Below, piece by piece: positions 56,640 to 63,618 of a stretch of 64,000 bases of DNA. How positions within the stretch are numbered: position 1 is the stretch's first letter; each line of letters begins with the position of its first letter. The stretch is from Tequatrovirus NIC06P2, in sequence record OZ035760.1; one strand, written 5' to 3'. The notes below the pieces were generated by a model. It ran no database searches. It saw only the letters and a list, made by a program, of their open reading frames with translations, and was not told where the DNA came from. The translations under genes were made by a program, and so were the position numbers.

Positions 56640-57755
56640 ATGGAAAAATTTATGGCAGAGTTTGGACAAGGATATGTCCAAACGCCATTTTTATCGGAAA
56701 GCAATTCAGTAAGATACAAAATAAGTATAGCGGGTTCTTGCCCGCTTTCTACAGCAGGACCATACGTTAAATTTCAGGATAATCCTATCGGAAATCAAAC
56801 ATTTAGCGCAGGCCTTCATTTAAGAGTTTTTGACCCTTCCACCGGAGCATTAGTTGATAGTAAGTCATATGCTTTTTCGACTTCAAATGATACTACATCA
56901 GCTGCTTTTGTTAGTTTCATGAATTCTTTGACGAATAATCGAATTGTTGCTATATTAACTAACGGAAAGGTTAATTTTCCTCCTGAAGTAGTATCTTGGT
57001 TAAGAACCGCCGGAACGTCTGCCTTTCCATCTGATTCCATATTGTCAAGATTCGACGTATCATATGCTGCTTTTTACACTTCTTCTAAAAGAGCTATTGC
57101 ATTAGAGCATGTTAAACTGAGTAATAGAAAAAGCACAGATGACTATCAAACTATTTTAGATGTTGTATTTGACAGTTTAGAAGATGTTGGAGCTACCGGG
57201 TTTCCAAGAAGAACGTATGAAAGCGTTGAGCAATTTATGTCAGCGGTTGGTGGAACTAATAACGAAATTGCGCGTCTACCAACTTCAGCTGCTATAAGTA
57301 AATTATCTGATTATAATTTAGTTCCTGGTGATGTTCTTTATCTTAAAACACAACTATACGCTGACGCTGATTTACTTGCTCTTGGAACTACAAATATATC
57401 TATCCGTTTTTATAATTCATCTAATGGATATATTTCCTCGACACATGCTGAATTTACTGGACAAGCTGGTGTTTGGGAATTAAAGGAAGATTATGTAGTT
57501 GTTCCAGAAAACGCAGTAGGATTTACGATATATGCACAAAGAACTGCACAAGCTGGCCAAGGTGGCATGAGAAATTTAAGCTTTTCTGAGGTGTCAAGAA
57601 ATGGTAGTATTTCGAAACCCGCTGAATTTGGCGTCAATGGTATTCGAGTTAATTATGTCTGTGAATCCGCTTCACCTCCGGATATAATGGTACTTCCTAC
57701 ACAAGCATCGTCTAAAACTGGTAAAGTGTTTGGGCAAGAATTTAGAGAAGTATAA
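56640..57755 (+). CDS. 35: Long tail fibre hinge connector gp35
   Basis: 371 aa, recognised as T4 gp35. Confidence 0.95.
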   Translation: MEKFMAEFGQGYVQTPFLSESNSVRYKISIAGSCPLSTAGPYVKFQDNPIGNQTFSAGLHLRVFDPSTGALVDSKSYAFSTSNDTTSAAFVSFMNSLTNNRIVAILTNGKVNFPPEVVSWLRTAGTSAFPSDSILSRFDVSYAAFYTSSKRAIALEHVKLSNRKSTDDYQTILDVVFDSLEDVGATGFPRRTYESVEQFMSAVGGTNNEIARLPTSAAISKLSDYNLVPGDVLYLKTQLYADADLLALGTTNISIRFYNSSNGYISSTHAEFTGQAGVWELKEDYVVVPENAVGFTIYAQRTAQAGQGGMRNLSFSEVSRNGSISKPAEFGVNGIRVNYVCESASPPDIMVLPTQASSKTGKVFGQEFREV

Positions 57756-57817: not shown

Positions 57818-58507
57818 ATGGCTGATTTAAAAGTAGGTTCAACAACTGGAGGCTCTGTCATTTGGCATCAAGGAAATTTTCCATTGAATCCAGCCGGTGA
57901 CGATGTACTCTATAAATCATTTAAAATATATTCAGAATATAACAAACCACAAGCTGCTGATAACGATTTCGTTTCTAAAGCTAATGGTGGCACAGATTCT
58001 CAAGGTTTCCAAAAAGAAGTAGAATTTAAAAAAGGTGTTAAGATTTCTGCAACGTTTTCTGGCGGTTCAAACCTGAATGGGTTATATTCTGGCAATGGAG
58101 ATGGAGCTTCCAGAGAAAAAGCTAACATGGATTTACGTTCATGGTACGGCATTGGTATTTGGAACTCATGCACAGGTGATGGGATCCAGGGACGCACAAT
58201 CTGGTTTAATGTCAGGCGTGGTACAGTTGAAACACTTGGCGATATTGTTTCGGGCAAACAAGTTATTTCTAATGCTTCAGGACCGACCGGCCCAGCACAC
58301 TTAACTCGCAAAGATTATGTTGATGGAGCAATAAATAATGTTACAGCAAATGCGAACTCTAGAGTGTTGCGTTCTGGTGACACTATGACAGGTAATTTAA
58401 CGGCGCCAAACTTTTTCTCGCAGAATCCCGCATCTCAACCTTCACATGTTCCACGATTTGACCAAATCGTAATTAAGGATTCTGTTCAAGATTTCGGCTA
58501 TTATTAA
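57818..58507 (+). CDS. 36: Long tail fibre distal connector gp36
   Basis: 229 aa, N- and C-termini recognised as T4 gp36. Confidence 0.93.
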
Positions 58508-58515
58508 GAGGACTT

Positions 58516-61500
58516 ATGGCTACTTTAAAACAAATACAATTTAAAAGAAGCAAAACCGCAGGTGCACGTCCTGCTGCTTCAGTATTAGCCGAAGGTGAAT
58601 TGGCTATAAACTTAAAAGATAGAACAATTTTTACTAAAGATGATTCAGGAAATATCATTGATTTAGGTATTGCTAAAGGCGGCCAGGTTGATGGTGATGT
58701 GACTATCAATGGTAAATTAACATTAAATGGCGCGTATGTTCAGACGCTGGCTGGTATTAATACTACGGGTGGTATTAATTCTGGGGCCGCTATAAGTGCA
58801 ACAACTTATTATGCTCGGTCTGGTTCTTTTTATGCTCGTGCTCCAGATGCCAATGCGAATACACATGTTTGGTTTGAAAATAACAATGGTATAGAACGTG
58901 GTGTGATTTGGGCTGTTCCGAACACTTCAGACCTAGGCTCGGTACGTATTCGAGCAAAAACCACAGGCGGTGTTTTCGCCGGCGAGTACAGTTTCCGCTC
59001 TGATGGCCGATTTGATGTTCCTGTAGCAGTTAAAATCGGCGGAGCAGCGATGCTAACCAAAGATGGCAACATTACCTCTGGTTCTATGTTTGGCGGTAAC
59101 CTTAACAACTATTTGACTTCTATTAAAAATGACATTGTTGCTGGTGATAATAAGAAAGTAAGTAAAACCGGTGACACGATGTCCGGCAACTTGACTATTA
59201 ACGCTAACTTAAAAGTCGAAAACTCTAATGGAACGTTTGTTGATTTAGGTTCAGAGAACTCTGATAAGTATAGCAGATTAACTCTTGCTCGTAAAATTGG
59301 CGATGGCGCTGGTGTAGCAATGCTTAAAGTTACTCCTGAAGGAAACGTGCAATTTGGTTATCAACCTACAGTTGCTACTCCATCTCCTACCAAGTATATT
59401 CTAATTAAACCTAACGGTCTTGAAGTAGAAGGTGATTTAGTTTTTAAGCAAACTTATCGTGGTGTTGAAGAAGCATTTGATATTACTGATCAGACTATTG
59501 ACCTTAATAGCCTTATTATTAGAGGATCAGATTTAGGTACTCGTAAGCTGTATAAATGCAGATCATCTGGAGGTGGTTCTAATATATTGAACAAACCTAC
59601 ATCTGACGGCAACTTTACTCTTGAAGTTCTGTCTTTACGCAAGGTTTCTGATACCGATTGGTCATGTAAGCAGACCTTTACTACAAAGAACAATAATGTT
59701 GTAGGCGTATATGTTCGCTACGGGCAAGGCGGCTCATGGTCTGCATGGCAAGAAGTTGTATCTGGCGTTCAGCCAATTAATTTAGGTGGTACTGGAGCAA
59801 CTTCTGCAGCTGCTGCCCGTAATAACCTTGGTGTTGGTGCAGGCCAAACTGTAACATTCGGTAATTTAGTTACCACCGATTTAACTGCAAACGGAAACGT
59901 TAGATTAGTTGGAAGACTGAACTTTGGTTCTAATTCTCAGTCGGCTGGTGTATTACGCGCCAACGAAGGTGGGGCTGTTGTTTTAAGTTCTGCAAGTGGT
60001 GCAAACATCCACATCAGAGCGGGCGGCGATACTTCTACTGGTGAAACTCGCTTTGAGCCAAATGGCAACGTTGTAGTTGGTGGAGCTATTACAACATCTC
60101 AGCGTATTACAGTTAATGCTGCCACCGATGCTATTGTTGTTAACGCTCCAACTCAAGCATCATCCAACTATATTCAGGGTCGTAAAGCTGGTGTCGCTAA
60201 ATGGTATGTCGGCATTGGCGATGATGGTGATGCAGTACGTCTACATAACAATGTATATTACCATGGTATTGGATTGAGCGCTGATACTGTCGATATTACC
60301 AAGCCTCTTAAAGTCGGAAATGCCAAACTAGGAACTGATGGTAATATCACCGGTGGTTCTGGCAATTTTTCTAACTTGAACACAACATTAAACCGTAAAG
60401 TTAATGTTGGTACATGGTCAGGTGTTGATAAAGTAGTAGGTTGGTACTGGTACAAATTTGCTACTGTAACAATGCCACAATCTGCATCTACCGCGCGTTT
60501 CAAAATTATCGGCGGGAATGGTTATAATGCTAATGCTCCTGAACAAGCATCTGTAAGTGAAATTGTTCTTAGAACTGGTAATAATAATCCTAAATCTATT
60601 AATGCGGTGCTGTGGTCTAGCACTAGTACCGGCCCGTCAAACATTGCTACAGTGAATACATCTGGCGATAATTATGATGTATATGTATACATGGGCAATT
60701 TTGCCCAATCTTTATTGGTTGAATATGATGCTACAGATACTCGTTATATTTCGGTAATCGGTCTTAATGGTGCATCTCAATCACCGGTAGAAGAGCTTCC
60801 TGTGAATAATGTTAAAGGTCGTGTTTTTAAACTTCTTAATAACAGCTCGGGTGTTTTTGATGCAGATAGTTCTAATATTTCTACAAACGCAACTTTTGTG
60901 GCAAATACTCCTTTAGGATTCCGTCACAAATCTAACGGCGACGAAAGTGGCTCTGCCGCTACTCTGCTTTATAATGATGGTACTACGTTCCACATATTAT
61001 TAACAGATAAAAATACCAATACTGATAGAACTAAAGCCTCTGGTTCTTATAATAGCTTGAGACCTTTTTCTATCGATATCGCTTCAGGTAAAGTAACTAT
61101 TTCACACTCTATGAGCGTTTTTGGGGTATCAGAGTTTTATACTGGCCTTAACATCAAAAATAATGGAATTAACTTTGATAAGTCTGGTGCTAACCCGAGA
61201 AACATGAGAATATTCCATGCCGGAGATGCCACACGTGGTAACCGTATTGAAATTGCTGATGATTCAAGTTATTTGGTTTATTTCCAACGTTTACCGGGCG
61301 GCGCTAACCAGTGTACATTTAACTCTGCTGCTCTTTCTGGTATAACACAGACTAACTCTTTTGGTATTAATACAACAAATGCATGGGGTGGTAACTCAAT
61401 TACAATAGGTGATAACGATACTGGTTTTAGACAAGTAGGCGATGGGCTTTTAGAAGCGTGGGCGAACAATGTTAAAGTTGTTAGATTCACCTCAGGTGAA

Positions 61501-61845
61501 GTTTATTCCGAGAAAAACGTCAACGCTCCTAATGTTTACATTCGTTCTGATGTTCGCTTGAAATCTAATTTCAAACCTATTAAAAATGCGCTCGAAAGGG
61601 TTGAGCAACTTGATGGTTTAATCTATGACAAAGCTGAATATATAGGCGGTGAACCTGCTCAAACAGAAGCGGGTATTATAGCTCAAACGTTGCAAGACGT
61701 TTTACCAGAAGCAGTCCGTGAATCAGAAGACAGCAAGGGTAATAAAATACTCACTGTTTCTTCTCAAGCCCAGATTGCTCTTCTGGTTGAAGCTGTGAAA
61801 ACACTTTCTTCTCGTGTAAAAGAACTTGAATCTAAACTTATGTAA
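58516..61845 (+). CDS. 37: Long tail fibre distal subunit gp37 with C-terminal intramolecular chaperone (peptidase S74-like) domain
   Basis: 1109 aa; N-terminal part T4-like; C-terminal about 98 aa after RSDVRLK match the self-cleaving chaperone consensus ([24 protein letters not shown]). Confidence 0.93.
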
Positions 61846-61847
61846 AA

Positions 61848-61863
61848 GAGGGCTTCGGCCCTC
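61848..61863 (+). other. Hairpin GAGGGC-UUCG-GCCCUC between genes 37 and 38
   Basis: 6-bp stem with UUCG loop, no clean U-run. Confidence 0.45.
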
Positions 61864-61875
61864 TAAGGATTTTTA

Positions 61876-62658
61876 ATGGCAATTGTAGGTGTTCCTGGCT
61901 GGATTGGTGAATCTGCCGTGAATGAAACTGGACAACGTTGGATGGATGCTGCAATGAGAGCAGTTCGTGTTTCAGTTCCCGGTTGGATGAGCTCAATGGC
62001 TGGACAATCTAAAGAAATTATTCACACGCTTGGAGCAGACCATAACTTCAATGGTCAATGGTTCCGAGATAGGTGTTTTGAGGCAGGTAGTACACCTATA
62101 GTGTTTAATATTACAGGTGATTTAGTATCATATTCTAAAGATGTTCCTTTATTCTTCATGTATGGAGATACACCGAATGAATATGTTCAGTTGAATATAC
62201 ACGGCGTAACGATGTATGGACGTGGCGGTAATGGCGGTAGCAATAGTCCTGGCTCAGCTGGAGGTCATTGTATTCAAAATGATATTGGTGGGAGACTAAG
62301 AATTAATAATGGTGGAGCTATTGCTGGCGGCGGCGGTGGCGGTGGCGGCGGATATTATTCTCCTTTTTCACAAATGAGATTGACCTTTGGCGGCGGTGGC
62401 GGTCGTCCTTTTGGTGCGCCAGGCGGATCTATTGATATGCAATCAGGCGCGACTGGTGGTACTATTTCTGCACCTGGCTCAGGATCCGTGAATGGTATCT
62501 ATAATGGCGGAAACGGTGGTGAAGTAGGTTCCGCGGGAGGTAGATGCAATATTCGCGGTCAAGGATCTGAATATAATGGCGGCGCTGCTGGTTATGCTGT
62601 CATAGGGTCCGCTCCAACGTGGCAAAATGTTGGAGCAATATATGGTCCAAGAGTATAA
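61876..62658 (+). CDS. 38: gp38 receptor-binding adhesin, T2 type (glycine-rich motifs)
   Basis: 260 aa; conserved N-terminus [11 protein letters not shown], poly-Gly motifs [11 protein letters not shown] and GGGGGRPFG separated by variable segments. Confidence 0.85.
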
Positions 62659-62688: not shown

Positions 62689-63345
62689 ATGGCAGCACCT
62701 AGAATATCATTTTCGCCCTCTGATATTCTATTTGGTGTTCTAGATCGCTTGTTCAAAGATAATGCTACCGGGAAAGTTCTTGCTTCCCGGGTAGCTGTCG
62801 TAATTCTTTTGTTTATAATGGCGATTGTTTGGTATAGGGGAGATAGTTTCTTTGAGTACTATAAGCAATCAAAGTATGAAACATACAGCGAAATTATTGA
62901 AAAGGAAAGAAATGCACGCTTTGAATCTGTCGCCCTGGAACAACTCCAGATAGTTCATATATCATCTGAGGCAGACTTTAGTGCGGTGTATTCTTTCCGC
63001 CCTAAAAACTTAAACTATTTTGTTGATATTATAGCATACGAAGGAAAATTACCTTCAACAATAAGCGAAAAATCACTTGGAGGATATCCTGTTGATAAAA
63101 CTATGGATGAATATGCAGTTCATTTAAATGGACGTCATTATTATTCCGACTCAAAATTTGCTTTTTTACCAACTAAAAAGCCTACTCCCGAAATAAACTA
63201 CATGTACAGTTGTCCATATTTTAATTTGGATAATATCTATGCTGGAACGATAACCATGTACTGGTATAGAAATGATCATATAAGTAATGACCGCCTTGAA
63301 TCAATATGTGCTCAGGCGGCCAGAATATTAGGAAGGGCTAAATAA
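62689..63345 (+). CDS. t: Holin T
   Basis: 218 aa, single TM segment, recognised as T4 holin. Confidence 0.95.
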   Translation: MAAPRISFSPSDILFGVLDRLFKDNATGKVLASRVAVVILLFIMAIVWYRGDSFFEYYKQSKYETYSEIIEKERNARFESVALEQLQIVHISSEADFSAVYSFRPKNLNYFVDIIAYEGKLPSTISEKSLGGYPVDKTMDEYAVHLNGRHYYSDSKFAFLPTKKPTPEINYMYSCPYFNLDNIYAGTITMYWYRNDHISNDRLESICAQAARILGRAK

Positions 63346-63618
63346 TTATTTGTTCGTATACATCTCTAGATATCGATATACACCCTCAAAACCCTCGTTG
63401 AATTCGTCGATGAGGGTTTTCTTATCTTCTTGAGTTAATTCAGAAACAATTTTACGGAATGAATTCTGATTTAATTTTCTACCTTCATGCGTTACTCCAA
63501 TCTCATTCAGAAATGCAATAAAATTAGCACGATTCTCAACAATATCTTCTCTGGAAAATTTAATCAAAATAGAAGCAACAGTAATAATTTCACGAACTGT
63601 ATCAATATTTTTATTCAT
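63346..63618 (-). CDS. asiA: AsiA anti-sigma-70 factor
   Basis: 90 aa, recognised as T4 AsiA. Confidence 0.95.
   Translation of the reverse strand: MNKNIDTVREIITVASILIKFSREDIVENRANFIAFLNEIGVTHEGRKLNQNSFRKIVSELTQEDKKTLIDEFNEGFEGVYRYLEMYTNK

Follow-up and report, generated by a model that had tools for sequence, protein, structure and literature searches.

A three-module mosaic gp38 adhesin in Tequatrovirus NIC06P2, with a probable crossover at a polyglycine codon run and a predicted Tsx specificity

Overview

The gp38 gene of Tequatrovirus NIC06P2 (sequence record OZ035760.1, of which a stretch of 64,000 nucleotides, here called the window, was analysed) appears, from segment-by-segment comparison, to be a natural mosaic of three modules: an attachment domain of T2 type, a beta-helix with the first hypervariable segment (HVS1) of T6/M1 type, and a block of HVS2, HVS3 and HVS4 of the Tsx (T6/CM8) type. 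In T2/T6-like phages gp38 is the main host-range switch, and it is a favoured engineering target for therapeutic phages. The explanation as a whole, that is, a gp38 adhesin encoded by a three-module mosaic with a crossover at a poly-Gly run and with Tsx as the receptor, is one that we consider likely. What is new is the combination of alleles only, neither the exact protein nor the combination of modules being on record; all features of gp38 fit the described T2/T6-type family, and its receptor cassette is of the commonest (Tsx) type.

The gene and its surroundings

The open reading frame of gp38 is intact, begins with ATG, encodes 260 aa plus a stop and sits between gp37 and the holin gene t. 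Its coordinates, its length and the N-terminus quoted for it in the initial annotation were all reproduced by translation. Open reading frames and Pfam matches give the gene order g35-g36-g37-g38-t-asiA around it, with the following features:

56640-57755, gp35-like open reading frame
57818-58507, gp36
58516-61845, plus strand, gp37, the distal long-tail-fibre subunit, 1109 aa, carrying gp38 at the fibre tip (Pfam gp37_trimer and Peptidase_S74)
61546-61845, plus strand, predicted intramolecular chaperone of gp37, its last 99 aa (Peptidase_S74 at aa 1011-1068)
61847-61864, plus strand, UUCG-tetraloop hairpin between g37 and g38 (-13.4 kcal/mol, z = -2.0), listed as terminator-like
61876-62658, plus strand, gp38
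62689-63345, plus strand, holin t (Pfam Phage_holin_T, 1.9e-117)
63346-63618, minus strand, asiA

Gene 38 lies directly downstream of g37 (end of g37 at 61845, start of g38 at 61876), and the hairpin between them is followed by a Shine-Dalgarno sequence, AAGGA (61865-61869), 6 nt 5' of the gp38 start, and by T5. The partner protein gp37 also appears to be a mosaic, and no single phage record was found to cover at least 80% of it. Near its C-terminus it carries the motif ...NVYIR/SDVRLK, with YIR/SD at aa 1008-1012 and the slash marking the putative cut; a cleavage site of the YIR/SD type is on record for S16 and has been deduced for the fPS phages (PMC7917993), and the chaperone of gp37 would by the same token be cut off after ...NVYIR/SD, freeing the docking face for gp38.

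Family membership and predicted fold

Membership of the family was taken as a match to both of its Pfam profiles above the curated cut-offs (25 bits each), and gp38 passes both: GP38 (PF05268; E = 7.3e-72, 242.2 bits) spans aa 47-260 and profile positions 1-218 of 218, and Gp38_N (PF21721; E = 3.5e-18, 65.8 bits) spans aa 1-42. Among solved structures, the sequence matches the receptor-binding domain of PP01 gp38 (9V85; 7.5e-78), which was determined as an sfGFP-gp38 construct (PMC12892980), and S16 gp38 as solved within the gp37-gp38 tip complex (6F45, chain D; 1.3e-48); no other gp38 adhesin has a solved structure. An AlphaFold2 model based on 50 homologues (pLDDT 89.5, pTM 0.81) retrieved the same two structures by Foldseek against the PDB as the only significant ones (9v85 with E = 6e-26, 6f45_D with E = 3.5e-21), every other structure having E > 1; it superposes on 9v85 with a TM-score of 0.87 and an rmsd of 2.3 Å, and on 6f45_D with a TM-score of 0.73-0.76 (Foldseek). 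The model thus confidently predicts that gp38 takes the polyglycine-II sandwich fold of S16 and PP01 gp38. The three tryptophans of the attachment domain are conserved as well; unlike the window's gp38 as predicted below, however, the PP01 and S16 proteins are both OmpC binders, with HVS loops unrelated in sequence, and S16 gp38 is 42% identical to it overall.

These results support the identification of the gene as a gp38 adhesin of the T2/T6 family, a predicted direct binder of an outer-membrane receptor. The position of the gene equals that of T4 gene 38, and some database homologues are labelled 'distal long tail fiber assembly catalyst', which would fit a T4-type gp38, an assembly chaperone that stays outside the virion and leaves receptor binding to gp37 itself. 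Yet the best BLASTP alignment of gp38 with T4 gp38 (AF158101, 183 aa) has an E-value of 1.7 and comprises 12 residues, whereas gp38 matches the two adhesin HMMs and the two adhesin structures. The T4 record AF158101 calls the T2-subfamily 'gp38' unrelated, and the C-terminus of gp37 is an intramolecular chaperone of S74 type, like those of S16 and T2, in place of the needle tip of T4. The T4-type identity is already refuted by the sequence, and we give it next to no probability. Alignment with the T4 chaperone was the check that the initial annotation had itself named for its reading of gp38 as a receptor-binding adhesin of T2/T6/K3 type, and that reading stands, with both HMMs, the PP01 and S16 structures, the predicted fold and the gene order g37-g38-t-asiA all agreeing with it.

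Anatomy of the adhesin and proposed mode of action

With motifs defined as in Trojet et al. 2011 (PMC3157838) and in Lutz et al. 2025 (PMC12032242), gp38 is divided into segments in which five glycine-rich motifs (GRM1 to GRM5) alternate with four hypervariable segments, as in the definition of the family:

61876-62013, plus strand, N-terminal gp37-attachment domain, aa 1-46, T2-type allele (Pfam Gp38_N)
62014-62217, plus strand, beta-helix/linker, aa 47-114, T6/M1-type allele (predicted strands)
62218-62238, plus strand, GRM1, GRGGNGG, aa 115-121
62239-62325, plus strand, HVS1 plus a conserved 19-residue stretch, aa 122-150
62326-62352, plus strand, GRM2, nine Gly codons, aa 151-159
62353-62388, plus strand, HVS2, 12 residues, aa 160-171, Tsx-type
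62389-62427, plus strand, GRM3, 13 residues, aa 172-184
62428-62505, plus strand, HVS3, aa 185-210, Tsx-type
62506-62541, plus strand, GRM4, 12 residues, aa 211-222
62542-62577, plus strand, HVS4, 12 residues, aa 223-234, Tsx-type
62578-62592, plus strand, GRM5, GGAAG, aa 235-239
62593-62655, plus strand, conserved C-terminal strands, aa 240-260 (modelled as strands at 242-256)

The attachment domain is identical to that of FL12 (46/46) and nearly so to that of T2 (45/46), and shares only about 30 of 46 residues with the T6 group; the T2 type that it represents is the rarer of the N-terminal types. The conserved gp37-attachment region proposed earlier for the N-terminus is borne out by the Gp38_N match and by W9, W22 and W37, which align with the tryptophans of S16 and of which W9 and W22 do not vary among 50 homologues; conserved gp38 tryptophans of this kind insert into the gp37 tip (PMC7917993). 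The beta-helix segment (aa 47-114) has 67/68 residues in common with CM8, KarlGJung and M1, as opposed to 28/69 with T2, and the C-terminal strands (aa 240-260), which in the domain description of PMC12032242 fold back onto the beta-helix, are identical to those of the T6 group (21/21). Glycine makes up 62 of the 260 residues (24%) and 47 of the 125 in aa 115-239. All four glycine-rich strings quoted in the initial annotation are present, but its count was incomplete, the fifth motif, GGAAG at 62578-62592, having been missed.

In the mechanism that we propose, partly from homologues, gp37 would trimerise and its C-terminal chaperone (the last 99 aa) would be released by the cleavage described above, after which gp38 would dock on the bared gp37 tip by its N-terminal domain (aa 1-46, including the tryptophans at 9, 22 and 37). 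Homology and the confident model indicate that the five glycine-rich motifs form the polyglycine-II sandwich core, and the four hypervariable segments would, as in homologues, be the distal loops that touch the receptor. In this way a gp38 monomer would cap the long tail fibre at its trimeric gp37 tip, where it would bind the primary outer-membrane receptor directly.

Probable recombination at the glycine run

The mosaic becomes apparent when the nucleotide identities of the window to FL12, T2 and CM8 are followed along the gene:

61735-62012 (last 37 codons of g37, spacer, gp38 aa 1-46): FL12 97-100%, T2 94-99%, CM8 39-62%
62013-62313 (gp38 aa 47-146): FL12 99.3%, T2 53%, CM8 96.1%
62337-62658 (gp38 aa 155-260): FL12 67.8%, T2 51%, CM8 98.9%
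gene t: FL12 98.5%, T2 97.9%, CM8 99.2%

On the left side, the closest relative is Escherichia phage FL12 (PP400786), whose gp38, counted by Lutz et al. (2025) among the OmpA adhesins of 'type 2', is identical over aa 1-160 and which shares the same end of gp37 and the intergenic hairpin; from nt 62352 on, FL12 departs from the window, with 3/12 residues of HVS2 in common, a 5-aa deletion and a 4-aa insertion. On the right side, the closest group is formed by the Tsx-binding gp38 proteins of Tequatrovirus (T6, CM8, KarlGJung/Bas37, WilhelmHis/Bas35, FL23/FL44, RB5 and RB14), which resemble the window in their 260 aa, in a nine-Gly GRM2, in gene position and in the 3' half of the gene (97-99% nt identity), CM8 and KarlGJung showing two differences each over aa 47-260, but which differ from it at 15-17 of the 46 positions of the attachment domain. 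T2, the FadL/OmpF binder after which the family is named, shares with the window the attachment domain and the architecture of five GRMs and four HVSs, whereas from aa 49 on its gp38 is a different allele (0/12 in HVS2). The last approximately 170 aa of T2 gp37 are 77% identical to those of the window and the last 30 almost identical, while the CM8 gp37 C-terminus is unlike the T2/FL12-type end found here. The C-terminus of gp37 co-varies with the N-terminal type of gp38: the window resembles FL12 and T2, not M1, the gp38 of which has a T6-type N-terminus, and this suggests that the docking partners gp37 and gp38 are inherited together.

A triplet analysis of the window, FL12 and CM8, with 143 informative sites inside the ORF, places a single switch between 62313 and 62337: to the left 59/60 sites are of FL12 type, to the right 82/83 are of CM8 type (maximum chi2 134.9, Fisher p = 4e-38, none of 10,000 permutations equal, p < 1e-4). 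The resulting interval is:

62314-62336, plus strand, recombination breakpoint interval (23 nt), FL12-like to the left and CM8/T6-like to the right

This interval extends 11 nt into the Gly run, and the analysis supports the view that the last junction of the mosaic arose by a crossover there, at the 5' edge of the GGC/GGT repeats. Diversifying selection is known to act on hypervariable segments, and most informative sites fall within the two most divergent blocks, so that a step-like similarity could in principle have arisen from one ancestor by uneven selection, fast at the N-terminus and in HVS2-4, with no recombination at all. Between 62013 and 62313, however, where all three proteins are near-identical, 10 sites join the window with FL12 while not a single one joins it with CM8; the majority have to be synonymous, T73A being the sole amino acid difference from CM8 in this region, and such sites argue against an explanation by selection only. 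Immediately beyond the Gly run the similarity shifts to CM8 (nt identity of 98.9%, compared with 67.8% for FL12), N-terminal types and HVS2-4 cassettes are freely reassorted across 110 family cluster representatives, and other chimeras exist, such as P0031, in which front and beta-helix are of T2 type and HVS2 and HVS4 are Tsx-like. Similar exchanges are also obtained in laboratory crosses (bioRxiv 10.64898/2026.04.02.716166; PMC3157838). Selection by itself is therefore a very improbable account, and recombination is preferred; segment exchange at this motif is in line with the modular model put forward by Trojet et al. (PMC3157838).

The engineered CM8xEV240 gp38 recombinant (bioRxiv 10.64898/2026.04.02.716166) has its junction in the same region as the natural crossover. 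It was, however, made and selected in the laboratory and brings an OmpA cassette into a Tsx phage, whereas the window appears to hold a natural event that placed a Tsx-type cassette behind a front half of T2/FL12 type. Either the window's gp38 or that of FL12 could be the recombinant, the direction of exchange not being polarisable because the downstream gene t is about 98% or more identical in all comparators. At 62280, 62325 and 62343 the window differs from both FL12 and CM8, and the true parents of the mosaic are apparently absent from the database.

The same picture emerges from database surveys. The exact gp38 product was not found in an index of 153 billion genes. Among representatives of 90% clusters the best is 92% identical, and phage records reach at most 92.2% nt or 93.5% aa identity over the full length. 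The best full-length match reaches only 92-93% because nearly all differences are concentrated in aa 3-46: each close relative of the Tsx group differs at about 18 positions, all but two of them within that stretch. Among 50,697 phage records, the 5' half of the gene is shared only with FL12, while the 3' half has 71 records at 95% identity or above. None of the 110 representatives has the window's segment profile; among them HVS2, HVS3 and HVS4 are tightly linked as a cassette (adjusted mutual information, AMI, 0.97 and 0.84), although this survey is mute on a hotspot at GRM2, HVS1 having only three types at the threshold used.

The glycine run itself was described in the initial annotation as GGC/GGT repeats at 62326-62352 that are substrates for slippage and segment exchange. 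The repeats are indeed there: the codons read GGC GGC GGC GGT GGC GGT GGC GGC GGA, nine Gly in all, and Tandem Repeats Finder detects 8.7 copies of a GGC unit of period 3 at 62326-62351; an exact 15-nt sequence, GGCGGCGGTGGCGGT, is common to GRM3 and GRM2. Segment exchange is upheld by the crossover at the edge of the run, but slippage is not, nine Gly being kept in all of CM8, KarlGJung, P922, T6, FL12 and M1, in which length variation of GRM2 was sought. In 120 family representatives the length of the longest Gly run varies between 4 and 9, a range that is no evidence for slippage because the shortening includes substitutions, e.g., GG to AA in T2.

Prediction of the receptor

The receptor was approached by aligning gp38 segment by segment with the gp38 genes of phages with known receptors, which gave the following identities to the window:

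CM8 (Tsx): HVS1 29/29, HVS2 12/12, HVS3 26/26, HVS4 11/12
KarlGJung (Tsx): HVS1 29/29, HVS2 12/12, HVS3 25/26, HVS4 12/12
T6 (Tsx): HVS1 29/29, HVS2 11/12, HVS3 23/26, HVS4 11/12
FL12 (OmpA): HVS1 29/29, HVS2 3/12, HVS3 15/30, HVS4 8/12
M1 (OmpA): HVS1 28/29, HVS2 2/15, HVS3 7/27, HVS4 3/12
T2 (FadL): HVS1 16/30, HVS2 0/12, HVS3 5/28, HVS4 1/12
PP01 (OmpC): HVS1 22/31, HVS2 0/12, HVS3 4/27, HVS4 3/12

For M1, the use of OmpA is reportedly a result of Montag et al. from 1987. HVS1 does not discriminate between receptors here, because it is matched at 29/29 positions both by the Tsx binders and by FL12. Taken together, HVS1-4 are the CM8 and KarlGJung alleles, at most one residue off in total in each case, and are near those of T6 and WilhelmHis; outside aa 3-46, gp38 differs from CM8 just by T73A and N234D and from KarlGJung just by T73A and G194A. 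FL23 and FL44 share the 3' half of the gene at 98% nt identity.

The receptors of these relatives have been established in several studies. CM8 depends on Tsx/HepI by RB-TnSeq (bioRxiv 10.64898/2026.04.02.716166), WilhelmHis is tsx-dependent, with complementation, and T2 uses FadL (PMC8594841), KarlGJung and Paracelsus use Tsx (PMC13353012), and FL23 and FL44 use Tsx while FL12 uses OmpA (PMC12032242). The alleles of the HVSs and the phylogeny of gp38 have been shown to track the porin used (PMC12032242) and, in a study of 54 gp38 adhesins with engineered swaps, to predict it; in the same study a CM8 recombinant swapped only from HVS2 on underwent a complete receptor switch (bioRxiv 10.64898/2026.04.02.716166). 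One set of four HVSs occurs in nearly all Tsx binders (Trojet et al., PMC3157838), and by sharing this set gp38 would belong to the Tsx-binding (T6-like) subgroup. The near-identity of HVS1-4 to those of Tsx binders, together with the sufficiency of the region from HVS2 onward, leads us to predict that the primary receptor of the phage is, with good probability, Tsx, the nucleoside channel of E. coli. The view of the initial annotation that the sequence does not reveal the receptor is thus outdated, given HVSs within one residue of verified Tsx binders and the published rules linking HVSs to porins. The OmpF class is set aside only indirectly, via the near-identity to Tsx binders, RB51 and FL31/33/34 lying outside the set of comparators.

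A caveat on this prediction is that one substitution in an HVS can be enough to change or widen the specificity. In RB68, Q206L alone moves the phage from OmpF to OmpW (bioRxiv 10.64898/2026.04.02.716166), and PST, which has a broader specificity, differs from T6 at residues 167, 168 and 208, its gp38 N-terminus possibly modulating OmpA recognition (Trojet et al., PMC3157838). Such small changes lend some weight to the alternative that the adhesin binds a receptor other than Tsx, or Tsx with a second one, either OmpA as in FL12 or a PST-like set of Tsx, OmpA and LPS. The identity of aa 1-160, HVS1 included, to the OmpA-dependent FL12 would agree with it, as would the combination of G194 and N234, which was not seen in the characterised phages compared with gp38, and the presence of Yersinia phages among the closest relatives, namely PYps47T (99.3% in the 3' half) and fPS-65, the receptor of which has been mapped to the LPS inner core (PMC7917993). 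Nevertheless, the porin-setting segments HVS2-4 share 49/50 residues with each of CM8 and KarlGJung and only 26/54 with FL12, the identity to FL12 in HVS1 is shared by the Tsx binders, and Q167, M168 and G208 of gp38 are T6-like, the PST-specific R167, I168 and I208 being absent. We consider a different or dual receptor unlikely, albeit with a probability that deserves to be kept in mind, and Tsx remains the predicted primary receptor.

Implications

It would be a further step to propose that the GRM2 codon run is a preferred natural crossover point that moves HVS2-4 between incompatible gp37/gp38 scaffolds and, in addition, that the chimera binds unlike both parents. We regard this double proposal as a long shot; if true, the altered binding might consist, e.g., in a changed range of Tsx variants or in a second receptor, acquired via G194/N234 or the T2-type N-terminus.

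It is now feasible to assign a receptor to an uncharacterised T-even phage on the basis of sequence, the prediction here being Tsx. The gene moreover would offer a clean natural case of the modular exchange that is known from the laboratory, its crossover being narrowed down to 23 nt at one of the glycine-rich motifs. The attachment domain of gp38 appears to travel with the C-terminus of gp37 and apart from the receptor cassette, which would represent a constraint for the design of gp38 swaps.

Mosaicism of gp37 and the g37-g38 Junction

The long-tail-fibre region carries the following features outside the gp38 gene:

56640-57755: ORF of 371 aa, gp35-like hinge connector
58516-61845 (+): gp37, distal long-tail-fibre subunit, 1109 aa
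61847-61864: UUCG-tetraloop hairpin, AGAGGGC-UUCG-GCCCUCU, with a perfect 7-bp stem

By sequence comparison, gp37 is a mosaic in its own right. Tequatrovirus BCH953P2 and BCH953P4 share 94-95% identity with the first 2279 nt of its gene, but a search of phage records found none covering at least 80% of the gene, and its last third has no close DNA relative as far as roughly 61734. Against the protein of FL12, a comparator phage that uses OmpA, identity reaches 94% over aa 1-467 and only 65% over aa 593-1109, with no alignment in the middle part between them.

The intergenic hairpin starts 1 nt 3' of the g37 stop, has a folding energy of -13.4 kcal/mol (z=-2.0) and is listed as terminator-like, the g38 Shine-Dalgarno and a T5 run lying directly 3' of it. 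It is identical in FL12, and the FadL phage T2 shows 98.9% conservation over 61735-61875, hairpin included, whereas in phages of the type of CM8, which uses Tsx, it is missing or different. Placed between g37 and g38, the hairpin may act in RNA stability or in attenuation.

The gp35-like ORF matches, at aa 58-127, the Pfam ILEI domain (Interleukin-like EMT inducer, PF15711; E=6.4e-9), scoring 36.6 bits, above the gathering score of 27 bits; the name is a surprising one on a tail-fibre hinge protein.

Relatives and Internal Repeats of gp38

Among gp38-family clusters (90%), the closest representative to gp38 of the window is P0001 (92% identity, 155 members), which NCBI names 'receptor-recognizing protein [Bacillus cereus]', most likely because of a contaminated or mislabelled assembly. 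The 303-aa representative P0046, labelled as an E. coli 'tail fiber domain-containing protein', joins Peptidase_S74 with both gp38 domains, an arrangement that points to either a fusion of the gp37 end with gp38 or a read-through annotation. In CM8 gp38 (L001), the third conserved tryptophan of the attachment domain is replaced by leucine (W37L), and since CM8 is a viable, well-characterised phage, Trp 37 is not strictly required.

Two exact direct repeats are each shared by a pair of glycine-rich motifs (GRM) of the gp38 gene, flanking hypervariable segments (HVS):

62329-62343 and 62389-62403: 15-nt repeat GGCGGCGGTGGCGGT, in GRM2 and GRM3, either side of HVS2
62500-62510 and 62572-62582: 11-nt repeat TATAATGGCGG, at the beginning of both GRM4 and GRM5, either side of HVS4

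Further copies of GGCGGCGGTGGCGGT occur at 80% in GRM1 and GRM5. Unequal exchange could proceed via these intragenic repeats, but deletions of HVS and GRM in gp38 have been reported as non-viable (Trojet et al., PMC3157838).
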